Positions 1 through 64,000 of a stretch of 64,000 bases of DNA are shown here, one piece after another; position 1 is the stretch's first letter, and each line of letters begins with the position of its first letter. Below the pieces are notes generated by a model. It was given only the letters and a program-made list of their open reading frames with translations. It searched no databases and was not told the origin of the DNA. The position numbers were made by a program, and so were the translations under genes. This stretch comes from Dictyostelium discoideum (taxonomy: Eukaryota), in NCBI GenBank assembly GCA_000004695.1, contig CM000151.3, positions 7,712,001 to 7,776,000 of the forward strand, given 5' to 3'.

Positions 1-1576
1 AATCCCAACATCATTCTTTACAAATACAGGTAGTTCATTAAAAACTTTAACATTGTCACTATCACAACCAAGTTCCGGAGTTTGGACCCAAATAAATTCA
101 ATTGAGAATTTAAATTTAATTTTTTATGGAACAACTGTAAATCCCAATAATATTTTAAATATTAATGGAGCTTATTATCAAAAATTATCCAAATTGTAAG
201 TTTTTTTTTTTTATTTAAAAATTATTTAAAAATTAATTTTTTAAAAAAATTAAAATTTTATCTTTAAACAATAGAATTATATCTGGTTTAAAATCAAAGG
301 TAACAATTTCAGAAATGAGTTACTTGGAAAATGTCTCTATTGAATGTATGGGAAAAGATGACAACTATAAAGATTTCATTTTTCAAAATATAACAAGTAT
401 GGATAACTTAGTTTTTAATGGTTGCTCAATTAATAGTTTAAGTTTTCCAAATTCAAATTTAACTAATTTGTAGGTATTAGTAATATTGTATTTTTTAAAT
501 TTTTTTTTTTTTTTTTTTTATAAAAAAAAACAATAATAATAATATTAATTATTTTAATATTAAAATTTTAAATAATTATTAAAAATAGGGAAATTAATGA
601 TGGTGCATTAAGTACAACAAGTCCACCATCATTTCCAAAGAATGTTGAAATTTTAAAAGTTAATTCAACAGGATTTAAAAATTTTCCAAAAACAACTGAA
701 ATCCCAAATATAAAACAATTAATAATAACCAATGGTATTTTCATTTCACCAATTCAATCACTTGCACCATCATTATCAATTGCCAATGTTATTAATAGTG
801 GTTTAAATGGTGAATTACCACAATCATATTGCTCAGTGAATCAAATTAATTTATCATCAAATAATTTCACATCAATTCCTGATTGTTTCCTTTGTCATTG
901 GTCATATACAAATCAATGGTTTTCAAATAATGTACCAGTTAATTTATCCCCAAATTCAAGTTTTATTTGCAATTTTGGAATTGTTGGAAATAATAGTGGT
1001 AGTATTATTAATATTTTTGATAATTCAACAAATAGTACAATCACAACGTTTAAAGTATTAACCTATGGTGAAACTATTAAATTCAATGGTATAAATTTGG
1101 GTTGGAATTTTCAAAATCAAACAACTGGTTTAAAAATGATAAAACCAAATACACAATTTTCCTATGAATTCCCACCGGAATCTTTTAATAAAACAAATGA
1201 AACTTTAATATTTTCAACTGGTAGATCAATTAAAATCCAATGGATTTATTATCAATATGGAATTGAAAATGTTGATTTCATTCAAAAAACTGATGGTGTT
1301 TTTGCGAATTTCACAGGTTTATTTGATAGTTCATCAATTATTTCAATTAATGGTATAGTTTATTCTCCATTGGTTTTATCAAGTAGGAATATTCAAATTC
1401 AATTTAATAATTCTTTCCCTGAAGGTCCAATTCAATTTGATTTACAAACATTTCAAACTTATAAATTTAAATATTTAAAAAGCTTTTCAAGGTCTTATCC
1501 ATTAATTACATCTGCCTCAATTATTTCTGTAAATGATAGTAAAGTTACAATTTTTGGTTCATTCTTTAATAATGAA

Positions 1577-1608
<32 letters not shown>

Positions 1609-2758
1609 AATTAAACCAATTGTATTAATTAATAATATAAATTGTGATATTGTTTCATCAGATAATTTAAGTATAGTTGCAAGTATACCAAAGTTTAGTC
1701 AAGGTGGTTTTACAAATTTAACAGTTATTGATAATGGATATTATTTTTCATCACCATTGATAATATTTTATGAAAAACCAAAACCAACGGAATGTAATCC
1801 ATCTTGTGAAAATGGTGGTAAATGTTCCCAAGGATCTTGTGAATGTGTTGGTGATTATTCTGGTGCAACATGTTCATTTATTAAACCTTCAAATTCAACC
1901 TATAGTTTAATAATTGATAAAACAAAACCAAATGCAAAATATGATATGGAAAAGGGTGCATTTGATTTCTCTTTAACAAGTGTTCAAGAATTGGATCTTA
2001 ATAAGAATGTAGTGAAACAAATTAACATAACCCAATGGGATTATTTACCAGATCAACCTGTTGAAGGTTTAGGTAATTGCTCATTGTATTTCACAAATGA
2101 ATCAAATGTACTCATACAAGTTTATCTTTTCATACCAACAGATTCTGTAAAATACAATTTCGCTGGTTATTCATTAAATATTGATTCAGGTCAAGTTAAA
2201 GTTTTGGTTAATATAAGTAATTGGCAATATGAAACATCATTAAATGTTTTACGTGCAGTTTTTAAATCTTCATCATTACCATCGAATAAAACCTCATCAA
2301 GCAATAGTTGTGGTGATTCTGACACTAGTACATTAGAAACTACAAATAATCAATATAATGCATTGTTATCATTTACATTCCAAAGAAATGGTGTAATTCT
2401 ATATGGAGTTTTCATTGATAAAATGCTATCAAATGGTAGAGTTGCAATATCAACCGTAGAGTCTTTACCTGATTATGGTGATTCCAATAATAATTATTTT
2501 GGAATAAATATGCCTCATTGTACCATATGTTTATTAGATCCAAATTTAGGACCTTTAGTTAATCCAGGTTTTGATTGCTCTGGAAGACCTTGGGTATTAC
2601 CTGTGTCATTAGTGGTTTCAATAGTTGGTGCTCTCATAATTTCAGTGAGTCTTTTTGTTACTTTTAAAAAATATTATATTATTGCTCGTGATGGTAAAAC
2701 AATTAAATTCTCTAGAAGAAGAAAATCTAAAAGTAGTTCAAAAATGTCCACTCAATAG
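1..2758 (+). CDS. Type I transmembrane glycoprotein with an LRR-like N-terminal region, an EGF-like module (CNPSCENGGKCSQGSCECVGDYSGATC), one C-terminal TM helix and a short basic tail. The 5' end is partial and the gene continues upstream of the window. Exons are <2..195, 275..469 and 589..2758.
   Basis: An open frame runs from nt 2 (IPTSFFTNTGSSLKTLTL...). Intron 1 (196..274) has a GTAAGT donor and a caatag acceptor. Intron 2 (470..588) has a GTAGGT donor and an aaatag acceptor. Phases are consistent: tt|a gives Leu and tt|g gives Leu. The hydrophobic stretch PWVLPVSLVVSIVGALIISVSLFV is followed by KKYYIIARDGKTIKFSRRRKSKSS. The ORF-track 'start' at 836 is a GTG inside exon 3. Confidence 0.6.
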
Positions 2759-5197: not shown

Positions 5198-10630
<5,433 letters not shown>

Positions 10631-11792: not shown

Positions 11793-14700
11793 TTATTCTT
11801 CATCATCAAACTCGCTAACTTCTGTGGAATCAACAACATTATCATCTTCAAGGAAAACATCGTCAAGATTAACTGAATATGGACCAGAAGTAATTCTATC
11901 GAAACCATAGATTTCATTTATAGTATTTTTAACTTCTTCAATTGAAGGAGATGGTGGAGGAGATGGAATTTGATAAGTTCTTGAGATGATATCTTTAAAG
12001 AATTCAGAGTTTTCAGATAATACTACAAAAACAAATTTTAAGAAAAGGTTGATATCTGGATTGTTTTGGTTGAAAGAGATCTTTACATGTTTTGATTGTT
12101 GAACTGCATTGGTATCATTGGTTGGGTTACCATTTTCATCCAAGAACTCAATACCAAAGGAATCAGTGAAAACCAAATCAACATATGGACAAATATTTTT
12201 AAGGGTAATATTTTCATCAGGTGATATAGATTGACTTTGTAAAAATTTGGAAAAGTAATTAACAAAAGAATATTGTTCAGGTTTACCTGGAATAACAGTA
12301 TTATCGATTAAAATTGATTTAAATCTGTAGAGATGTTTCAAAGATTCAACAACTTTTTCAACGGCCAATAAAGATTTAAGATTATATTCTTCGGTGGCTT
12401 TATCTGAAGAACCACCATTAATCATATCGAATGAATCTTGAATTGAGTTCAAAAAGATGAATAATTCTTTGTCGATAAAGTTTGAAGGAATAAAACAGAA
12501 ACCAGATTTATTATCATGAGAGATAATGAATTGATAATGATCGGAAATGATTAAATTAATATTCTTCCATTTGAAATCAGATAAACGTTGACTGATAAAT
12601 TGAATGGATTCTTTCCATTCAACATTGGTTGAACTCTCTTCTGAAGAAGCACCTGACAATTGATCTTGAATTCTTTGGAAAATGGATACTTGTTTTTGTG
12701 GTTTTTGTTCGTCAAGATTTGAAAGTTTTGAGAAGAAGTCATCTAAATCTGATGAAATACCTGGTGAGTTTTTAGCATCTTTAAGAATGGATTTGATATT
12801 GAGTGAAGAGACTTGAGTAGTAGGGGTGGTATTTTGATCTTTTGCTAATGTATCATCGATATTTTTTGTTGACATAAAATCAATTGTAGATACAATATCT
12901 GGTTTAATAATATTAGTGGCTTCAATTGGAATAATATTATTTTGACCAAAGACAATATTGGCTTCCTTGGCATATTGTTTGGAATCACTATCGATAGTGT
13001 CTTCTTGAGATTTTTGAGTTTTAATAGTGGTGAATTTATCAAGTTCTTTCATTTCATTTTCAAAATCTTTATTTTTTGAAAATGAATTTCTTAAATCAAG
13101 TTTATCGGCAATGGTTGAATTACTTGGATCGGGGATTTCTGAATCGATGTGAATTGGTGTATCTTTATCAAGATTACTTTTTTTGAGGTTTGGAAGTCTT
13201 TCTTTTAATGAGACCAATGGATGAGGAATTGGTTTTTGAGAGAGAAGGAATGGTACATCAGTTGGTGTTTCAAAGAGTTTAGTTAAACGTTCAACGGATG
13301 ATAAAGACTTTGTGATGAATGGAGTTGTTTGAAGGGAATCAAATTGATTTCTATTGACAAGAGTCAATGGTTTTTCACGAAGATCTGAAGTAGTTGGTTG
13401 AGCTTCAGGATTGGTAAGCTTTTCCATGGTTTTATGAATACGTTCTATTTTTGTACTATTTGATTCTTGTAATGGAACACGAGCGTCTTTAACAAAATCT
13501 TCTTCACGAGAGGCGATATATTCAATCTTCTCTTGAGTGTTTGTGATGACATTATTGATTTTCCAACGTTGAAATTCGATATCTTTAAAGTTGGTCAATG
13601 GTAATTGTTTCCAAGCTTCTGCCTTGACAGAGTCTAACAATTGAACCATTGGAATTTTCAATTCACCAACCAAGGTCAAAGAACTATTAAAAGTATCACG
13701 TACTTTCTCCATAGTTTTTTGATTGATTGAGAAGAGATTCTCAACGACGACACTACTTGAACCTAGTAAATTCTCTAATTTAATGGTTTTCTCTTCCAAT
13801 GCTTTATGATTATTATCTACGATGGAGAAGATATTTTTAAAGTTATTGTTGGTCTTTGGAATTACAACATTCTTAATGTAGGTCAATGTCTTTACTGGAC
13901 TGAAATCTTTCTCCAATACAACGAAACCTTTTGCTGTTAATGTTGGTTCCATAATATTGTAGAATTCTGGATTGACAATAGCAATTGGTAATGAACTCCA
14001 TTCTTGGAATTCCAATGCTAATAAATTCTCTTTCAAATGAACGATTTGAAGCTCTGCTTCCTCTCTAAGATTGAGACTACGCATTATATCGATATCACCC
14101 TTTGCATTCTCTCCAAAGTAAAAGAAAACTCTATTCTCTTGGAATTGATCCATAAGTCTTTGATGTTCATATAAATGATGTGATGTTAATCTATCTTGGG
14201 TAACTGGGAATTGCTTAATGAATTCATCCAAATCTGTTGTTATTGATGCCTTTTTATCTGGATTCTCTGCATAATATTCTTCCCATGGATCATCATAAAT
14301 TTCTTTTGAAACTGGTTCTGGATTTTTTAATAATTCTTTTTCTGCTTTTGAAACACCAATACCTGATTTCTCTATTAATGAAAAAATTTGTCTATAAATC
14401 GAATATCTATAAAAATAATAAATAATAAAAAATAATACATATATATTATATATATATATATGTCAATATAAATTTATATAAAATTAAATTCATTATAATT
14501 CAATCAATTTGTTTTTTTAAATATTACCTTAATTCTGTAACATATTGAACTAATGAAGATTTTGAAGTTAAAATTGAATCAGGAGCATCAATAAAATTAA
14601 AATCTTGACTGATTTCAACTGTACCACCATCTTCTTCATATTCAACAATGAAATTTAATGTTGATTGAGTTGGAATTTTATCTAATTTAGTGATGACAGA

Positions 14701-15267
14701 ATCTTCATTTTCAGATACTTCAACGTATTCTTCCAATGTACGTAATAAATTGTTCAATTTGGTTAAAGATGCTTGATTGATAGCTCTAGAGGTTTCATCG
14801 TTGTGGAAAATATCTGGATGTACTTTGATAAAGAAACGATTTAAATAGGAACGTAATGATTTTTCAATTTTTTTTGATGTGTGATAGTATGGTGCTTGTT
14901 GATCATTTATTTCGATCTTTGGTGTTTCAATATGGATTTCTTCGTCAAAGATCTTTTCTTGATCTCTACCTGCTTGATTTGGTTCAAATGATTCGAATGA
15001 TTCGACTGGTTTAAATGTTTTTGATTTATTATAATATTTGAGTAATGCTTCCTCACCTTCTTGAACTGATTTAATATAACCAAGATTTATTGGTTGATCT
15101 GATTCGTTAACATTTGATGATGATGGTGTTGTTGAATATAATCTATTGGAATTAAATTTATTTAATGGTGAAAGAACATTATAATATTGAGTGTTGTTGT
15201 TGTTTGAAAATCTAACTAATAATGTCTTTTTTTCAACTTTACCAAATAGTCTACGAATTTGACTCAT
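11793..15267 (-). CDS. Large protein (~1120 aa) with an N-terminal J-domain-like segment carrying an HPD motif, a possible mitochondrial presequence and an acidic C-terminus. Exons are complement(14528..15267) and complement(11793..14406).
   Basis: Exon 1 encodes MSQIRRLFGKVEKKTLLVRFS...KKIEKSLRSYLNRFFIKVHPDIFHNDETSRAINQASLTKLNNLLRTLEEYV, which follows the helix II-HPD-helix III pattern of a J domain. It ends ...LVQYVTEL with the donor AG|GTAATA (phase 2). The intron spans 14407..14527. The acceptor ttttatag|ATATTCG lets translation continue (R)YSIYRQIFSLIEKSGIGVSKAEKELLKNPEPVSKEIYDDPWEEYYAENPDKKASITTDLDEFIKQFPV..., which runs straight into the 812-aa ORF-track ORF. The ORF-track 'M' at 15279 is GTG, and the first ATG is at 15267. 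Confidence 0.6.
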
Positions 15268-15344
15268 TTTCTTATTCACACAAACATATATATATTCTCA
15301 AACAATATATATGACCTGTGAATTTGTAGAAAATAATATTAATA

Positions 15345-15569: not shown

Positions 15570-16144
15570 TTACATTAAATTACAAGATGATGATGATGAT
15601 GATGAAGTTGATGATAATTTCGAATTTATTGATTTTTCAATTAATTTAATTTGATTTTGTGGCATTTTTGAAGAGAATTCTAATGTTCCAGCCAATGAAT
15701 ATAATTGTTGAAGTGCAGAGGGCTGATAAGTTGCTTTATTATTTAAATCGGGTATTAAATCATTTTGAAGTAGTGCTATTGCAATTGGTTTCATTGGATC
15801 ACGTTTACGAATCTCTGTGAAATAATTTGTAAAGTTATTATATGAATTACTTGAACCTTGTAGAGTGAAACACACAATAAACAAATCTGTAGTATCAAAA
15901 TCCGATTGTGATAATGATGTTGATTTCTCTTTAAATCTAAGTTTACTATTATATGATTTACCTACATAGTTTAAATTATTTACAAATGTAGTTTTACCAA
16001 TTCCTGAATCACCAATTATATAAATTATTTTCTCTTTATTTGTCACTTTATTCTTTTTTATTGTTTCTAAATTTGTTTCATTAATGATTCTACTTTCAAA
16101 ATCAAATAATTTCATTGAATTCATTGATGAAGTTATTGTTAATG

Positions 16145-16176
<32 letters not shown>

Positions 16177-18093
16177 GTTGATTTACCATCAGTTATATTT
16201 GATTCTACAATTTCTGCTCTTCTTTGACCACCAACTCTAAAATTTTCAAAATAACCAGTATTTGAATTATAAACAAATTTTGGATCAACTTGAAGATTTG
16301 GATTAATTTTATACCATGGCTCATTTACTTTAATATATGATGGTACACCATATTGTTTAAAAATGACATTATTCTTTGGAGTGGTTGAAGTTGTAGTAGT
16401 GGTCGTAGTAGTGGTAGTAGTTGTTGTTGTAGTTGTTTTTGAAGAATCATTATCATTATCATTTTCATTTCCTTTAATTACAGTAAAATTATCTTTATTT
16501 AAATCATCTAAAATTTCATTCATTTCTTCACAAATATCACCTTGATCTTTAATTTCATTTTGATATTTATCAAATTGTTCTTTTGAACTTTCACGATAAC
16601 AAATTGCTAAAAACATTTGAGTGATTAATTCAAACTTTTTAAAATTAATACATACACCACCTGATCTTTCAGCCAAATCTGAATAGAATATACTTGTACC
16701 CAATGCTCTAACACCATAGATTTTAATACCTCTATCAAAGAGATCATCGCATTCTTTGAACCAATTTATATTTAAATTTGTGTAGGTTGGTTCATGTGGA
16801 TTTGAATCACCAATCATTACGAATGCTTTTGAAGTATGTTCAGACCAACTTAGCTCCTTTGCACGGTAAAGCGCATATTCATATGCTTCAGGTTCATCAC
16901 CACCAGATGTATTTGGCACCATATTGATGAATGATACGATCTCGTCAATGTTGGATGAAAGATCCAATACTTTTAAAACGTTTACACCATCACAATAATC
17001 ACCCATACCCATAATACCAATTTTAATATTTGGAATATCTTTCATTAATCTATTTACAGTTTGAACGATTTGAGTACGAACTGATTTAATAATGGTTGCC
17101 ATTGACCCGGTTGTATCAAAACAAAATACAATCTCAACATCTGCTGACATTGACGATTGAACGAAATTCTTTAATAAATAATCATCTTCCATCTTCTCTT
17201 GTTCTTTTTGAATTCTTTCTCTTTCATTTCTTTCTTCAATTTCTTTTTCAATTTCATATTGTGATGGTTTTGATGATCCTGATCCTGTTCCTGATCCTGA
17301 TGATTTACCATTATATCTATTTCTATATGATTCACTATCACTATCACTATCACTTGATGTATCACTTTCATAACCTTTAGTTTTACTATAATTATTATTA
17401 TTATTTTTATTATTATATTTATATTTTGATAGTGGTTCTTTTTTATTTAATGTTGATCCTGTTGTTGTTGTTGTTGTCGTTGTTGTAGGTAGTGGTGTTC
17501 CAATTTTCATATCAATAGTATCATAACAATTAATATTCTCTTGTAAACTCATACTCTCTGTATATTTAGTATCTGTACCAGTTTTATATAAACTAACAGA
17601 GTTTAAATATGAACGTAATAATGGTATTTGAGTTTGTAATGATGTTCTAATATGACTATTTAATTTTAATTTTAATTTTAATTTTAATTTTAATTTTAAT
17701 TTTTTTTTTAAAAATGTTAATATTAATGATAATTGATCTGATAAAATAACTATATATATATACATATATATTAAAAACTTACGATACTAAATGTGAAACT
17801 TTTAAACCTGCATTATTTGGAATTTCAACTGGATAATCTTTATCTAAATATTTAATAGTTAATTTAATCTCTTTAATTAAGATCATATGAATTGTTGACT
17901 CTTTTTTAATACCACATGCTCCAATTGCTTTTGATAAGATATTTGATAAAACATCACCAGCAAAGTGTAATTGAAATTGATAGCTTTTATTTTTTGTTCT
18001 CTCTGCAACCTTGTTATATAATACTGACAAGGTATCTGAAATTTCAATATCCAATGAAAATGTTATAGTTGGTGTTTTAATTAAAACTAACAT
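15570..18093 (-). CDS. Multidomain protein of ~798 aa. It has an N-terminal ubiquitin-like domain, a Thr-rich linker, a vWA domain with a MIDAS DxTxS motif, a divergent Ras-like P-loop domain and a C-terminal CaaX box (CNLM). Exons are complement(17783..18093) and complement(15570..17655).
   Basis: Exon 1 encodes MLVLIKTPTITFSLDIEISDTLSVLYNKVAERTKNKSYQFQLHFAGDVLSNILSKAIGACGIKKESTIHMILIKEIKLTIKYLDKDYPVEIPNNAGLKVSHLV, and ends TC|GTAAGT (phase 2). The intron spans 17656..17782 and contains (AATTTT)7. The acceptor ttaaatag|T gives TCT=Ser and then HIRTSLQTQIPLLRSYLNSVSLYKTGTDTKYTESMSLQENINCYDTIDMKIGTPLPTTTTTTTTTGS. The acceptor position satisfies the phase (17766-17655 is divisible by 3). The vWA domain reads VEIVFCFDTTGSMATIIKSV...NTSGGDEPEAYEYALYRA...FVMIGDSNPHE. 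The GTPase-like domain reads IYIIGDSGIGKTTFVNNLNYVG...LFIVCF...PIAIALLQNDL...SSKMP, ending ...SSSSSSCNLM*. Confidence 0.7.
17641..17700. repeat. (AATTTT)n hexanucleotide microsatellite of about 7 units inside the intron of the UBL-vWA gene
   Basis: Direct reading: taattttaattttaattttaattttaattttaattttaat. Confidence 0.9.
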
Positions 18094-21734: not shown

Positions 21735-24700
21735 TAAATTTTTTTAAAATATTAACACTATTTATTTATATATACATATGAATTAAAGTGGTCATATTCA
21801 ATTTGGTTTATTATCAGAAGATGATATAGTTAGATTATCACATGTTCAAATTGTTAATAGAGAATTATTTGATTTAGTAAAGAGAAAACCAACACCATAT
21901 GGTGTATTAGATAATAAATTGGGTACAAGCGATAAACAAGCAATGTGTACAACATGTGGATTAAGTATTGTCGATTGTGTTGGTCATTTTGGATATATTA
22001 AATTACAATTACCAGTTTTTCATATTGGATATTTAAAGAATATTATGAACATTTTACAAATGATTTGCAAGAGTTGTTCAACCATTCTATTGAATGAAGA
22101 GAAGAAACAATATTATCTAAGAAAGATGAGAAATAAAAAGATGGATAATCTACAAAGGAAGTCATTATTGAAAAAGATATTTTTAGAGTGTAGAAAAACC
22201 AAAGAATGTTTGAAATGCGGTTCAACCAATGGTATGATTAAAAAGAGTGGTGCATTCAAGATCATTCATGAAAAGTATAAAGGAAAGACAGAGTCATTGC
22301 AAGACTATTACGCATTGTATGATGACGCCATTAAATACAATCCAGAGATGAAATCACATATAAAGAAAGCACAAGACGATTTGAACCCATTGGTGGCCTT
22401 GAACTTGTTTAAAAAGATCTCTTATCAAGATATTGAAATTATGAATATGGATCCAGTGATTGGTAGACCTGAAAGATTGATCCTAACCTATATGTTGGTG
22501 CCACCGGTATCAATTCGTCCATCGGTACCAATGGATGGTGGTAGTGGCACCAATGAGGATGATTTGACAATGAAACTATCAGAGATATTGCATATCAATG
22601 AACATATTAGATCCAATGTGGATAGAGCAGAGATGTCTGCAATTATGGAGGATTGGGATTATTTACAAGCATCATGTGCAATCTATATCAATTCAGATGT
22701 TCCAGGTTTACCATTACAAATGAAACCAACCAAAGCAGTACGTGGTTTATCACAACGTCTCAAGGGTAAGACAGGCAGATTTCGTGGTAATCTATCGGGT
22801 AAACGTGTTGATTTCTCTGGTCGTACTGTAATTTCACCCGATCCAAATTTAAATATCGATGAGGTTGCAGTACCACAATTGATTGCATTGACAATGACTT
22901 ATCCTGAACGTGTAACCGATTATAATATTGAACGTCTTCAAAAGTATGTTATCAATGGTCCAGATCGTCATCCAGGTGCAAACTATATCATCTATGCCGA
23001 TGGTGTAAAGAAATGGTTGAAATTTGGTAATCGTGAAAAGTTTGCAGCAGAATTGAAAATTGGTGATATCGTGGAACGTCATATTATCGATGGTGATATC
23101 ATGTTGTTCAATCGTCAACCTTCACTTCATAAACTTTCGATTATGTCTCACAAAGCAAGAGTTATGCCATGGAGAACACTTCGTTTCAATGAATGCGTTT
23201 GTACACCTTACAATGCAGATTTCGATGGTGATGAAATGAATATTCATTTACCACAAACAGAGGAAGCCAGAGCAGAGGCAACCATTCTCATGGGTGTCAC
23301 TAACAATTTGATCACTCCAAGAAATGGTGAACCATTGGTTGCAGCAACTCAAGATTTTCTTACTGCTTCCTATTTGATTTCACGTCGTGATGCTTTCTAT
23401 GAAAGATACCGTTTCGCTCTAATGTGTACTCACTTTGCAGATGCAAATGAACATATCGATTTACCACCACCTGCCATTTTGAAACCAGTTGAACTTTGGA
23501 CAGGTAAACAAATTTTCGAAGTACTCTTACGTCCATCGGTCAAATCACATGTTTTATGCAATTTTGAAACTCGTTCACGTACCTATTCAAAGAATCTCTA
23601 TATGTGTCCAAAGGATGGTTATGTTTATTTTAGAAATTCCGAATTAATGTGTGGTTCAATCGATAAATCAATCATTGGTGGTGGTAATAAGAATTCATTG
23701 TTTCATATTCTCATGAGAGATTTCTCACCAACCATAGCTGCCAATTGTATGACACGTTTAGCAAAACTTTGTGCTCGTTTCCTTGGTGATCAAGGTTTTT
23801 CAATTGGTATACCCGATATTAAACCAGCCGAAGATTTAGATAGAAAGAAACGTGAAATCATTGAAACTGCCTACAAGAAATGTGCAGTATTCTTAAAGGA
23901 TTATGAAAGTGGTAGTTTACAATTAAGTAGTGGTTGCTCGATGGAACAAACATTTGAGGCGAAAATGAATCAAACTCTATCACAAATTCGTGATGATTGT
24001 GGTAAGCTTTGTGTTAATGATTTACCAAATTACAATTCACCATTGATTATGGGTCTATGTGGTTCAAAAGGTTCAAACATTAATATTGCTCAAATGATCT
24101 GTTGTGTAGGTCAACAGATTGTCAATGGTACTCGTATTCCAAATGGTTTCACCAATAGAACTACACCACATTTCAAACATTTTGCAAAGAATCCAAAATC
24201 AAAAGGTTTCGTTTCAAATAGTTTCTATACTGGTATGATTCCAACAGAATTCTTTTTTCACACTATGGGTGGTAGAGAGGGTTTGGTAGATACTGCTGTA
24301 AAAACTGCTGAAACTGGTTATATGCAACGTCGTCTAATGAAAGCTTTAGAGGATCTTTCAACTCATTATGATTATACTGTACGTGATTCAATTGGTGGTA
24401 TTGTTCAATTCATTTATGGTGATGATGGTTTAGATCCAGCAGGTATGGAAGCAAAAGATAGACCTGTAGATTTCCTCCGTGCAATGATGAGTGTTAAATC
24501 AACTCGTCAATGTAGAAATGAACCAGAAATGAAACCATTTGAAATTCGTAAACTCGTTGAATCCATTATTGACAGCTCTAAATTTGAAGCTTGTACAGAT
24601 TTATTCAAAAATGAAATTAGAGTTTTCTTTAATGGTAATGAAAAAACAAAAGGTTATATTCAAGAATTAATTAGTTTACGTAAACAATTTAAATTATCAT

Positions 24701-26100
24701 CTTTTGATTTAAATGATAATGAAGATGAAATTATTATTGAAGATAATTCTCCAATGGATATTAGTACTACTACTACTACTACCACCACCACCACTACAAA
24801 TAATGCAGTTAAAATAACTAATATCACCACAGATATTGAAATGAATGAAAGTAATAAAGAAGAAAATGATAAAATTGAAAAAGAAAGAATTGAAAAAGAA
24901 AAAGAATCAAAAAGATTAAAATTATTAGGTGAACGTTTTGCAAATGAACATGTTGTAAATCAAATTCATAGAATTACTAAAACTCAAATCGAATTATTTT
25001 TAGATATTTGTTTAGATAAGTACAGTAGAGCTAGAATTGAACCAGGTACAGCAGTTGGTGCAATTGGTGCTCAATCAATTGGTGAACCAGGTACTCAGAT
25101 GACTTTGAAAACTTTCCATTTTGCTGGTGTAGCTTCTATGAATGTAACATTGGGTGTACCTAGAATTAAAGAGATTATCAATGCCGCTAAAAACATTTCA
25201 ACTCCGATCATTACCGCAAGTTTAAATTGTGACTATGATATTAGATCTGCAAGAATTGTAGCTGGTCGTATTGAAAAGACTACATTGGGTCATGTTGCAA
25301 CACACATTAAAGAGGTGGTAAAAAGAGCAGGTTGTTATCTTTCAATTAAAATCGATAAAAACTTTGTAGATTCATTACAATTGGAAATCAATTCAAAAAC
25401 TATCAGTCAATCAATTGCCTCCACCAAAGGTTTGAAATTAAAACCCGAACAAATCACTACCAATGGTGATTACAAACTTAGAATCGTACCTCCAGCCAAT
25501 ATCAGAGAGGGTTCTTTATATTATTTACAATTCTTAAAGAATAATTTACCAGCAGTAATTGTTAAAGGTATTCCAACGGTCAATCGTGTTGTCATTTCAA
25601 AGGTTGATGAAAAACAAGAACGTTATCAACTTTTGGTCGAAGGTTATGATTTACGTGCTGTAATGGCTACACCTGGTATCAAAGGTACTCATACAACTAG
25701 TAATCATATTATGGAATGTGAAAATACTTTGGGTATTGAAACAGCTCGTAATACCATTATGTCTGAAATCGATATGATTATGACAAGTCATGGTATGTCC
25801 ATCGATATTCGTCATGTTATGTTATTGGCTGATCTCATGTCTTTCAAGGGTGAAATCTTGGGTATCACTCGTTTCGGTATCGCTAAAATGAAGGAATCCG
25901 TACTTATGTTGGCTAGTTTTGAAAAGACTACCGATCATCTTTTCGATGCTGCCGTACATCACCGTCAAGATGATATCGTTGGTGTTTCTGAATGTATCAT
26001 TATGGGTGTTGTTATTCCTTTGGGTACAGGTTTATTCAAATTACTCCGTAAATCAAATAAAAATAATTTACCAAAGAAATCTTTACTCTTACAAGATTAA
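21653..26100 (+). CDS. rpc1: DNA-directed RNA polymerase III largest subunit (RPC1). Exons are 21653..21693 and 21789..26100.
   Basis: Exon 1 encodes MIELLKEDDAPKK and ends AT|GTAAGT (phase 2). The acceptor aattaaag|T at 21789 gives (I)GHIQFGLLSEDDIVRLSHVQIVNRELFDLVKRKPTPYGVLDNKLGTSDKQAMCTTCGLSIVDCVGHFGYIKLQLPVFHIGY..., collinear with POLR3A. The catalytic NADFDGDEMN and FDGDE motifs are present. At about 1450 aa with no CTD heptads, it is Pol III rather than Pol I or II. A lineage-specific T13/N-rich insertion lies at 24766..24797. Confidence 0.93.
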
Positions 26101-29602: not shown

Positions 29603-32353
<2,751 letters not shown>

Positions 32354-52968: not shown

Positions 52969-58836
<5,868 letters not shown>

Positions 58837-62135: not shown

Positions 62136-64000
62136 TTATTTTTTTAACATTAAAATTGATTTTAGTGTTATATTTTGTAAAAAAGCAGTTTTTGAAGATG
62201 AAAAGTTTAATTTCTTTGATTTAGTTAAAATGTTGTTAAATGAAGTGGTGGAGGTGGTAAAAGATGAACCATTAATAGATTTGAGAGGTTTAGTAGTATC
62301 ATCAAATAATGAGACTTTAGATTCATTTTCCGAAATTAAATTAATATCATTATCTTTTTGACTAATAGCAGCTTTTGCGATTTTATATTCATTAATGACT
62401 GATCTAATATTATCTTGAGAGAATGGTGATTTGAATTTTGATTTTGGAAGATAATTAACGATAATTTCTCTTTCTTTTAATCTTGAAATATTTAATTCTT
62501 GATAATAACCATCCAATATATCCTTTACATTATAGAGTAAATCTGCTTGATAAGGTGAGAATCTAATTAAATCATAAGCAACACCATATGGTACTTTACC
62601 AAAACCACAACGAATTGTATTTTGATAACGTTGTGAGAAATGAGTTACGATCGTTTTTCTAGCTCTCATATTGTAGGATACATTTAAAGTTTCATCTAAA
62701 GTTGAATGACGTTTTAGGTAAGCTTGGTCTTTTTCATCGTTGGCAAAGGTTGATTCGTGAATTAAGAGATCAGAATCTGCACCAGCTTTCTCTAAAAGTT
62801 GGCAAGGTCTAGTATCACCAGAGAAAGTTAATCTAAAGCCATCATTGAAATCAATGACACAACCATAGGCATTTGGTGCATGTATTACTGGTACATTTGT
62901 GAATGAACTAATTCCAAGGGTTTCACAAACTTGTACCATATTTTGACCACCCGAACCAATGCTTTGAGTTACAAATGAAAGAGATGGATCAAAACTTTCA
63001 CGATATTGAGTGATCCAATTGATGTAGGATGAATGTGAAACCACAAGCATTGGTGAATGTTTACTTCTCTCTTCTTCACTTAATTTGCTCAATGCTTCAT
63101 CCCTTGCTTTGACAATTGATATTAAACCCAAATGATGATCAGCATGTAAATGTGATATCCAAATCATTTTGGTGTCAATTAAAATCTTTTGCAAATCGAC
63201 TCTACCAAAGTATCTCTCCATTTGAATTAGAGTTGATTCACCACAATCCAATATGAAATGATTATTCTCACTACTACTAATGAGAATACCTGTAACATTT
63301 CTATGTTCTGAAGGAACGGATGAGGCAGTACCAAGGAATAAAGTTTTTGGATATTTACTAGCTGGTTTATTCTTTACCAATGATTCCAAATGTCTATCGA
63401 GATCCAACATTGTTTTAGTTTGTTTTTCACCCTCACCTTTCAAGAAATAATCATCATGTTGAAGTTGTAATTCATCTTGGTGACTTATAATATCTTGAGC
63501 CAATATTGGTGCACCACGGAATTGTGTTGGTGTCATTATGACTCTAAATGAATTTCTAGCTGGAATGATTGAATTGAAAATGGTTGATTTCTTTATATTC
63601 TCTAAGGAATTGATTGAAGTTGGCTCCCATTTTGGGGAATCGGTTTTATGGATTGATAATGAGGGTATCAAAATCTTTAATCTACTTCTAAAGAGGTCAC
63701 AAAGTTTAAGGACATCTTGAATTTCTGTGAATTCTTTATGTAACAATATATGTTTAGTTGAACCATACATAACACTACCATCCTCTTCAGTGATTGATTT
63801 CTCCTCATCATTAATATCTTTAAGTTTTCCATAGAATTTGGTGTAGTTATTTTTGGTGGATACATGACTAATCGATTCAATGAATTCCAAATATTTTGGA
63901 TTCTCCATTATATGTGGTGCAGTCTTATGATAGATGGCAGTCAATGGTTTTGTACCATCTTTAATTGAATCCCAAGCTGGATTATTAAATAAATCTTGGA
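62136..64000 (-). CDS. tRNase Z (ELAC2-like ribonuclease Z, long form), C-terminal metallo-beta-lactamase half. The gene continues upstream beyond the window end, so the 5' end is partial.
   Basis: It carries ...FILDCGESTLIQMERYFGRVDLQKILIDTKMIWISHLHADHHLGL (the HxHxDH zinc motif) ... and AGADSDLLIHESTF. The reading frame stays open through 64000 (…SQDLFNNPAWDSIKDGTKPLTAIYHKTAP...). The ORF-track 'M' at 63944 is TTG. Confidence 0.8.
   Translation of the reverse strand, partial: QDLFNNPAWDSIKDGTKPLTAIYHKTAPHIMENPKYLEFIESISHVSTKNNYTKFYGKLKDINDEEKSITEEDGSVMYGSTKHILLHKEFTEIQDVLKLCDLFRSRLKILIPSLSIHKTDSPKWEPTSINSLENIKKSTIFNSIIPARNSFRVIMTPTQFRGAPILAQDIISHQDELQLQHDDYFLKGEGEKQTKTMLDLDRHLESLVKNKPASKYPKTLFLGTASSVPSEHRNVTGILISSSENNHFILDCGESTLIQMERYFGRVDLQKILIDTKMIWISHLHADHHLGLISIVKARDEALSKLSEEERSKHSPMLVVSHSSYINWITQYRESFDPSLSFVTQSIGSGGQNMVQVCETLGISSFTNVPVIHAPNAYGCVIDFNDGFRLTFSGDTRPCQLLEKAGADSDLLIHESTFANDEKDQAYLKRHSTLDETLNVSYNMRARKTIVTHFSQRYQNTIRCGFGKVPYGVAYDLIRFSPYQADLLYNVKDILDGYYQELNISRLKEREIIVNYLPKSKFKSPFSQDNIRSVINEYKIAKAAISQKDNDINLISENESKVSLFDDTTKPLKSINGSSFTTSTTSFNNILTKSKKLNFSSSKTAFLQNITLKSILMLKK

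Follow-up and report, generated by a model that had tools for sequence, protein, structure and literature searches.

A 2021 review of Rho signalling in Dictyostelium lists 20 rac genes and the pseudogene racK_ps, and mentions no relative that contains a vWA domain or a ubiquitin-like domain (UBL) (PMC8305917). In RhoBTB3, most of the GTPase domain is missing and the CAAX motif is kept (PMC8305917). The present study concerns a gene at 15570..18093 on the minus strand of a 64,000-nucleotide stretch of Dictyostelium discoideum DNA (the window; GenBank assembly GCA_000004695.1, contig CM000151.3, positions 7,712,001 to 7,776,000), which sequence comparison confirmed as a single two-exon gene with a product of 798 amino acids. 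The order of domains in this product is a UBL, a probable second UBL, a linker, a vWA domain with a metal ion-dependent adhesion site (MIDAS), a small beta module, a Rac-derived pseudoGTPase domain and a CaaX box. The gene is outside the 20 listed rac genes of D. discoideum and thus adds a Rho-derived gene that is omitted from current inventories (PMC8305917).

The RhoBTB proteins (RacA of Dictyostelium and RhoBTB1-3 of human) are likewise multidomain Rho proteins of the Rac branch fused to interaction modules linked to the ubiquitin system, and RhoBTB3, with its degenerate Rho domain, CAAX motif and link to ubiquitin ligases, is the nearest functional analogy. The Rho domain of RhoBTB is N-terminal and its partners are BTB domains binding cullin-3, whereas in the window protein a C-terminal Rho-derived domain is combined with UBLs and a vWA domain. 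Because Pfam matched no BTB domain in the window protein and the order of domains differs, it is not a RhoBTB member. With Rac1 and Rac2, the window protein has in common the P-loop GDxxxGKT, the strand 'TD(V/L)F(L/I)xCF', the Asp of NKxD, the CaaX box and a C-terminal placement, but it is without switch I, beta2, the Gly and Gln of DxxGQ and the Rho insert, and the domain is set within an 800-residue protein.

The vWA domain shares its fold with the betaI domain of integrin beta, and in both the MIDAS consists of D-x-[ST]-x-S-M, a Glu from D-x-P-E and an Asp further on. Unlike betaI, the window vWA has no ADMIDAS (adjacent to MIDAS) Asp pair after DxSxS, no specificity-determining loop and no hybrid-domain insertion, and it is predicted to be cytosolic, not extracellular. 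Cytosolic or nuclear vWA domains that work with ubiquitin-like folds or with the ubiquitin-proteasome system include midasin (Rea1), the MIDAS of which binds the UBLs of Ytm1 and Rsa4, and Rpn10, which combines a vWA domain with a ubiquitin-interacting motif. These proteins provide a lead for an interplay between UBL and MIDAS; no sequence kinship to them was found beyond the vWA superfamily, and in the window protein the UBL and the MIDAS share one polypeptide. The same module of two UBLs, vWA domain and beta module is found in the D. discoideum paralog DDB_G0280503 and in UBL-vWA_4 proteins of Planoprotostelium, Capsaspora and bivalves, with 54% identity over the vWA region, but these proteins have no remnant of a G domain, and hardly anything separates their beta module from the CaaX box. 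A search of the literature for the UBL-vWA-Rac architecture or for DDB_G0280503 found nothing relevant, in agreement with the statement in the earlier note on this DNA that the combination was not recognized among characterized families.

C-terminal domain derived from Rac

The C-terminal domain comprises residues 645-781 (15624..16034, minus strand) and contains the P-loop GDSGIGKT (residues 652-659; 15990-16013, minus strand) and the G4 motif LQND (residues 733-736; 15759-15770, minus strand). When this domain alone was compared with PDB sequences, the best matches were Rac2, RhoU and Rac1 at an E-value of 0.0017, over the P-loop and the stretch 'TDLFIVCF...LQNDL' only, and a profile made from eight dictyostelid orthologs only matched Rac2 at 1.5e-9, with Rac, Cdc42 and RhoG at the top of the list. 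An AlphaFold2 model of the domain was obtained with a predicted local distance difference test score (pLDDT) of 78.6 and more than 90 in the core, and in Foldseek searches with this model Rac1, ROP9 and RhoA were returned first (E about 2e-7). By these sequence and model comparisons the degenerate domain is specifically Rac-derived and of small-GTPase fold. The earlier note had called it a degenerate Ras-like domain with a perfect P-loop; both features stand, and the profile and Foldseek results narrow the origin to Rac. The structure prediction that the note had proposed agrees with a small-GTPase fold, of which only a five-stranded sheet is modelled, the region of beta2, beta3 and alpha2 being replaced by the single strand LRFKEK (residues 676-681) and a short helix.

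For the motif analysis, the domain was aligned with homologs bearing a canonical Rac domain and with human Rac1. All dictyostelid orthologs are without approximately 21 residues that include switch I (with the T35 equivalent) and beta2, roughly residues 31-52 of Rac1, and without approximately 5 residues of switch II, A59-D63 of Rac1, including G60 and Q61, so that, compared with its canonical counterparts, the domain is shorter by 24-26 residues, precisely in the switch regions. The Rho insert helix is also absent, the region after LQND being short and modelled with pLDDT below 50. On the other hand, G652, G657, K658, T659 and D736 do not vary among 15 sequences; the position of Rac1 D57 is occupied by E680 in the window protein and by E or D in all dictyostelid orthologs; LQND keeps the invariant D736 with Gln in place of Lys; and the G5 motif FSSK keeps S765. 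Thus the G3 motif (DxxG), described previously as unrecognizable, does lack the equivalents of Gly60 and Gln61, but its acidic residue remains as E680, and the weak G4 motif LQND is present as described.

Because switch I, beta2 and the Gly-Gln of G3 are lost while the P-loop, E680, D736 and S765 are kept, the domain appears to be a pseudoGTPase that no longer switches or hydrolyzes and that may still bind nucleotide. Several points weigh against this assignment. The Pfam Ras profile scored 18.9 bits, below its cut-off of 21.6, and covered residues 680-743 only, so that of the profile searches suggested in the earlier note, those for ubiquitin and VWA exceeded their gathering scores and that for Ras did not. 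The change of Lys to Gln in G4 and the absence of switch I could mean that nucleotide affinity has been fully lost, and the alignments used for AlphaFold2 were shallow (15-16 sequences) and the models give no interdomain information.

The alternative that survives best takes up the second of these points, namely that nucleotide binding has been lost altogether and that the domain is a pure interaction fold, like the pseudoGTPases of CENP-M or p190RhoGAP, in which the P-loop is conserved for structural purposes. This is unlikely, since GxxxxGKT, the acid at the D57 position and the Asp of NKxD are invariant among orthologs that are otherwise 27-42% identical in the domain, which is the pattern expected from selection for nucleotide binding. 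Still less probable is that the domain is a working atypical GTPase switch, with alternating GTP- and GDP-bound states, that regulates exposure of the vWA domain and UBLs, as presumably happens in the canonical-Rac homologs. An intact and invariant P-loop, the conserved acidic residue at D57, Asp of G4 and Ser of G5, and the small-GTPase fold itself would suit such a switch, but there are no equivalents of the switch I Thr, of beta2, or of Gly60 and Gln61, and the 24-26 missing residues, the five-stranded model and the Pfam Ras score below threshold are all at variance with it.

CaaX box and decay of the G domain

A Ser-rich tail (residues 782-794) is followed by the CaaX box CNLM (residues 795-798; 15573..15584, minus strand) at the extreme C-terminus, directly before the stop codon. 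The orthologs end in CSLM, CSIM or CLIM (C[SLN][LI]M) and the canonical-Rac homologs in CLVM, CVVM, CSVM, CIVM or CMLF, and proteins without a G domain also end in such a motif, namely CNLM in DDB_G0280503, CNIM in P0011 of D. purpureum, CSIM in P0076 of Planoprotostelium and CVIC in P0095 of Capsaspora. As judged from these endings, the lipid-anchor signal is a conserved feature of the family that has outlived the G domain, and the CNLM box is as it had been reported. A Met at the X position directs a CaaX box to farnesyltransferase, and an aliphatic residue at a2 is standard. The earlier caveat that Leu at a2 makes CNLM ambiguous between geranylgeranylation and farnesylation was consequently misplaced, since it is X that selects. 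A point against stable membrane binding, which is uncertain, is that the CaaX box is preceded by a poly-Ser stretch in which neither a polybasic nor a palmitoylation second signal is present; both membrane anchoring and catalytic loss are features that we infer from the sequences.

In non-dictyostelid Amoebozoa (Stereomyxa and several transcriptome or metatranscriptome sources), the homologs have, after the two UBLs, the vWA domain and the beta module, a canonical Rac domain with the motifs GDGAVGKT, YVPSVFDNY, WDTAGQEDYDRLRPLSYP, TKTDLR and CSSL. In these proteins (P0027-P0033, P0056 and P0087) Pfam Ras was matched at E-values of 1e-41 to 1e-47, and the Rho insert, which is often present, was found in P0029, P0030, P0032, P0056 and P0087. 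One non-dictyostelid protein, P0031, has kept beta2 and beta3 and lost DxxG. Among dictyostelids, four kinds were distinguished: the window type with P-loop and CaaX box; a clade that has no CaaX box and in which the P-loop is dead (GDLHIGFST); proteins without a G domain; and fusions with EF-hand and WWE domains. The third kind includes the paralog DDB_G0280503 (P0008, 527 amino acids; CM142509.1), in which the two UBLs, vWA domain and beta module lead directly to '...SKGSRCNLM'. In a neighbor-joining tree of the vWA domain, which has no support values, the dictyostelid paralogs formed one clade, sister to the Rac-bearing amoebozoan proteins, and the sequences of bivalves, Capsaspora and Myxococcus fell outside. 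By sequence, then, the stages from canonical through partial, switch-deleted and P-loop-dead to absent are all represented among living species. These proteins make up an amoebozoan family with a covalent fusion of Rac to a putative effector module of UBLs and a MIDAS domain, and they offer a natural series for the change from GTPase to pseudoGTPase with the lipid anchor and partner domains kept.

Two of the ortholog models deserve comment. The model of Cavenderia fasciculata DFA_12145 (P0004) continues for 48 residues beyond '...SRKSCSII', where every other ortholog stops with a CaaX box of the CSIM type, and its 3' end is probably mis-annotated. In Acytostelium P0006, the conserved beta module is lost over a stretch that resembles a model or frameshift error.

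Gene structure and splice junction

The minus strand contains an open reading frame (ORF) of 104 amino acids at 17779..18093 and another of 731 amino acids at 15570..17765. In the gene model, exon 1 (17783..18093, minus strand; 311 nucleotides) begins with the ATG at 18093 and encodes the first UBL (residues 1-74) and 29 residues at the start of the probable second UBL; the intron (17656..17782, minus strand; 127 nucleotides, GTAAGT...TAG, phase 2) contains (AATTTT)7 at 17662-17703; and exon 2 (15570..17655, minus strand) encodes residues 104/105-798 and ends with the TAA stop codon at 15570-15572. The donor site TC/GTAAGT lies at 17783/17782, after ...GTA TC, and the acceptor site TAG/T at 17656/17655, so that TC and T are joined across the phase-2 intron to give Ser104 and the spliced reading frame is open for 798 codons. 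Among 48 GT..AG combinations that keep the frame, this donor alone meets the GTAAGT consensus, and an alternative acceptor 9 nucleotides downstream would remove HIR, a stretch kept by the orthologs. The G+C content is 7.9% in the intron, 25-28% in the exons and 23.6% in the window DNA.

The model was compared with orthologs from Polysphondylium violaceum, Tieghemostelium lacteum, Cavenderia fasciculata, Acytostelium subglobosum and two further sources; the homology searches, which may not have covered close relatives, returned neither the protein of the window gene itself nor an ortholog from group-4 Dictyostelium. Their N-terminus is shared, MLIL(I/V)KTPTITFSLD, with the start MLILIKTPTITFSLD in all, and the alignment is without gaps over the junction (GLKVSHLVSHIRTSL in the window, GLKISHLTRQIKTSL and similar sequences in orthologs). 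In the P. violaceum genome, the region from UBL to vWA is within one exon and the sole intron, of 59 nucleotides, is located elsewhere, after residue 427; ortholog P0001 (49% identical) is an uninterrupted ORF on three separate transcript-sized contigs of 2.4 kb; and in the annotation of DDB_G0280503 a phase-2 intron falls at exactly the corresponding residue, GLKISTLK/F/QIKNSL. A gene for a DUF4460 protein is next downstream of both the window gene and the P. violaceum gene, and this shared neighbor supports the orthology of the two. Use of the junction in D. discoideum was accepted because of the homology, the composition of the intron and the conserved position of the intron in the paralog. 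The coordinates, the orthologs and the paralog intron all agree with the earlier proposal of one spliced gene for 798 amino acids, joined in phase 2 from 17783 to 17655 with TC+T read as Ser.

It is very improbable that the UBL ORF and the 731-residue ORF are separate genes, or that the UBL ORF is untranslated and the junction unused, and two separate genes were rejected. In favor of this alternative, exact look-ups of the 798-residue product were unmatched in the protein collection, as were those of alternative products of 795, 731, 660 and 104 amino acids. It is contradicted by the orthologs from five dictyostelid genera, which have the same UBL start and align through the junction, by the single exon from UBL to vWA in P. 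violaceum, by the annotated paralog intron of identical site and phase, and by the consensus donor and the 7.9% G+C of the intron; moreover, the ATG of the 731-residue ORF sits in the AT-rich intron, and the first 36 residues of that ORF are junk. A pseudogene was also rejected, the ORF being intact and conserved across Dictyostelia.

N-terminal ubiquitin-like region

The first UBL was matched by Pfam ubiquitin (PF00240) over residues 4-72 with an E-value of 1.4e-6 and 28.4 bits against a cut-off of 25.4, which bears out the ubiquitin-like domain of the earlier description. Its end, ...HMILIKEIKL, runs straight into the next domain, and because the C-terminal Gly-Gly is absent, this UBL is an integral, non-conjugatable part of the protein.

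Residues 75-157 (17496..17871, minus strand), which are split by the intron and conserved across the family, are probably a second UBL of beta-grasp fold, for which the sequence evidence is weak but consistent. When Pfam searches were made for each family member, matches to this region were confined to beta-grasp families (ubiquitin in 3 of 13, Ubiquitin_4, YukD, PB1 and FERM_f0), and a profile of the region matched the UBLs of IQUB, RAD23 and ubiquilin among PDB sequences at E-values of 0.03-0.8. In mollusc homologs, two stretches were matched by Pfam ubiquitin. The assignment is weakened by hhalign, which gave no significant match of the region to the first UBL, to ubiquitin or to the second UBL of molluscs, and the second UBL is accordingly called probable only.

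The low-complexity linker that follows (residues 158-261; 17184..17495, minus strand) comprises a T9 run, an N-run, SD/SG repeats and an acidic-basic stretch, and it is not conserved in the alignment; the T9 run noticed previously is at residues 161-169. Of the four-part product described in the earlier note, the UBL, T9 linker, vWA domain and GTPase-like domain were all recovered, but the description was incomplete in that a probable second UBL and a beta module are present as well.

vWA domain, MIDAS and beta module

The vWA domain covers residues 276-470 approximately and is prolonged, up to residue 500 or so, by helices that are specific to the family (16467..17141, minus strand, for domain and extension together). 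It was matched by Pfam VWA_4 with an E-value of 1.3e-8 (35 bits against 27) and by VWA_2 with 3.8e-6 (27.9 bits against 27). The AlphaFold2 model of residues 262-579 (pLDDT 80.6, predicted TM score 0.82) shows a predicted core of alternating beta and alpha elements, and Foldseek searches with it returned solved vWA domains with E-values of 1e-7 to 1e-9 overall, including the vWA domain of TFIIH Ssl1/p44 (7.6e-9), the betaI domain of integrin beta3 (3e-8), CMG2 and the I domain of integrin alpha2. Pfam and the model thus both uphold the vWA assignment made previously. The single window vWA sequence gave no match among PDB sequences, and the family profile was required.

Thirteen vWA columns are invariant (D284, T286, G287, S288, M289, G355, G356, D357, P359, E360, D387, P390 and H391), those of the MIDAS ligands in 15-17 family members, and DTTGS is at residues 284-288. 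They fall in a triad like that of integrin beta, D-x-T-x-S-M, G-G-D-x-P-E and G-D-x-x-P-H, encoded at 17103-17117, 16887-16904 and 16797-16808 (minus strand), respectively. In the integrin beta3 MIDAS the ligands are D119/S121/S123, E220 and D251, with D217/P219/E220 also forming the adjacent synergistic or ligand-induced metal-binding site (SyMBS/LIMBS). On the basis of these positions and the invariant columns, the predicted ligands of the window MIDAS were assigned as D284, T286 and S288 (17103-17117), E360 of GGDEPE (16887-16904) and D387 (16806-16808), all on the minus strand. As far as the sequence can tell, the MIDAS is complete and of the integrin-beta type (DxTxS...DxPE...D), and metal-dependent binding of a ligand is predicted. 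The MIDAS had been read earlier as DTTGS...T...D; it is indeed intact in D284, T286, S288 and D387, but the fourth ligand is E360 of the invariant GG-D-x-P-E and not a Thr.

The family profile aligned 'GGDaPE...W...ligDavPH' with 'NIDTPEG...W...vmTDQTSH' of integrin beta8 at E-values of 0.008-0.2, and in one homolog the same stretch gave a weak Pfam Integrin_beta match (E 0.046). All of these values are marginal, which counts against a specific relation to integrin beta; the likeness to betaI may reflect either common ancestry or convergence.

Beyond the vWA core come two family-specific helices and a disordered T16 linker, and then a Trp/Tyr-rich beta module (residues 534-577; 16236..16367, minus strand) with the pattern 'EPWY...P.Y.YN...GYF', in which W551 and G571 are nearly invariant and strands are predicted with pLDDT 73-85. 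A WW domain was considered for this module and rejected, since Pfam WW was negative on 8 family segments at E-values up to 10 and the likeness is by pattern only.

A vWA domain with a MIDAS and betaI-like motifs would speak for an extracellular or surface adhesion molecule, comparable to Dictyostelium Sib proteins or integrin I domains, but this reading is scarcely credible and was rejected. The N-terminus is formed by a UBL instead of a signal peptide, and the sequence shows no transmembrane segment; a Rac-derived domain and a CaaX box at the C-terminus are marks of a cytosolic protein; and this vWA subfamily is fused to intracellular domains (RING, WWE, BRCT, PH and EF-hand). The 'adhesion' role that had been offered for the vWA domain is likewise unlikely for a cytosolic prenylated protein.

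The vWA subfamily contained 3225 proteins at E-values of 1e-5 or less. Its fusions include RING, BRCT with WWE, linker-histone, EF-hands with WWE, and PH domains (P0115, P0117, P0118, P0093, P0037, P0016, P0025, P0026 and P0011), and most of these partners are domains of ubiquitin or poly(ADP-ribose) signalling. Stand-alone bacterial vWA proteins (P0097 and P0099 of Myxococcus; P0038 and P0039) are up to 45% identical to eukaryotic vWA_4 domains and share with them the motifs DxTGSM...GGGDxPE...DxPPH. The eukaryotic vWA_4 domains are spread patchily over Amoebozoa, Capsaspora, bivalves, a chytrid and Lithocolla, and this distribution together with the bacterial likeness points to horizontal transfer, whether into or out of bacteria. 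The gene neighborhood of the Myxococcus homolog gave no functional clue. The family thereby draws attention to an uncharacterized, cytosolic VWA_4 subfamily with integrin-beta-like metal-site motifs that in amoebae, Capsaspora, bivalves and bacteria has repeatedly been joined to domains of the ubiquitin system.

Proposed mechanism

Taken as a whole, we consider it fairly probable that the protein is a membrane adaptor, that is, a farnesylated UBL-vWA protein with a nucleotide-binding, non-switching Rac pseudoGTPase domain. Confidence in the architecture and in the evolutionary reading is high, and that in the mechanism is low to moderate. With the corrections given above, sequence, profiles and predicted structures support the interpretation of the earlier note in each of its elements. 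The C-terminal Cys would be farnesylated, X being Met, and would hold the protein at the cytosolic face of a membrane. Beside this anchor, the pseudoGTPase domain would probably bind nucleotide with Mg2+ as a structural cofactor and could serve as a constitutive docking or orienting module rather than as a switch regulated by guanine nucleotide exchange factors and GTPase-activating proteins. The MIDAS (D284, T286, S288, E360 and D387) may grip a partner protein by an acidic side chain, and D357 is positioned such that it might contribute to a second metal site adjoining the MIDAS. The non-conjugatable N-terminal UBLs could recruit receptors for UBLs or ubiquitin; alternatively, they may fold back onto the MIDAS of the same protein, as UBLs do on the midasin MIDAS. 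The net result would be an adaptor, tethered to a membrane, by which the ligand of the MIDAS is connected with machinery of the ubiquitin system, a flavor that is also seen in the fusion of the vWA subfamily to UBL, RING, WWE and BRCT domains, and in its ancestry the protein would be a Rac covalently fused to its own effector module. Against this proposal it has to be said that every functional step is one that we infer. Since D. discoideum is genetically tractable, farnesylation, nucleotide binding, the MIDAS ligand and the partners of the UBLs are directly testable.

A more far-reaching proposal, which is speculative and which we hold to be doubtful, is that UBL-UBL-vWA-Rac-CaaX proteins constitute a third class of multidomain Rho-family proteins beside RhoBTB. 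They would have been born in Amoebozoa by fusion of Rac to a prenylated UBL-MIDAS module, with every stage of decay still alive (the canonical switch; DxxG lost; switch I and beta2 deleted with the P-loop kept; the P-loop dead; and the G domain gone with CaaX kept). The dictyostelid pseudoGTPase would then have a new, nucleotide-dependent and non-switching role, for example in docking to the membrane with a cofactor as stabilizer or in binding ATP, as RhoBTB3 does, and the cytosolic MIDAS would be a true relative of integrin betaI.

Neighboring genes

Directly downstream of the gene, the DUF4460 domain (PF14687, E 5e-8) was found in an ORF at 14524-15279 (minus strand), and this neighboring gene probably extends to 11793-14231 (minus strand); the two ORFs, of 251 and 812 amino acids, may be exons of one gene. 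The other genes of the window, in order of position, are those for a ComC-supersandwich-domain protein at 836-2758 (plus strand), the clathrin heavy chain chcA at 5834-10630 (plus strand; 100% identical over 1598 amino acids to P25870 of D. discoideum AX4), an RNA polymerase largest subunit of the Rpb1 type at 21919-26100 (plus strand), a diacylglycerol kinase with C1 domains at 29768-32353 (plus strand), a CLU (clustered mitochondria) protein at 52969-58836 (minus strand) and a metallo-beta-lactamase-fold protein at 62136-63944 (minus strand).

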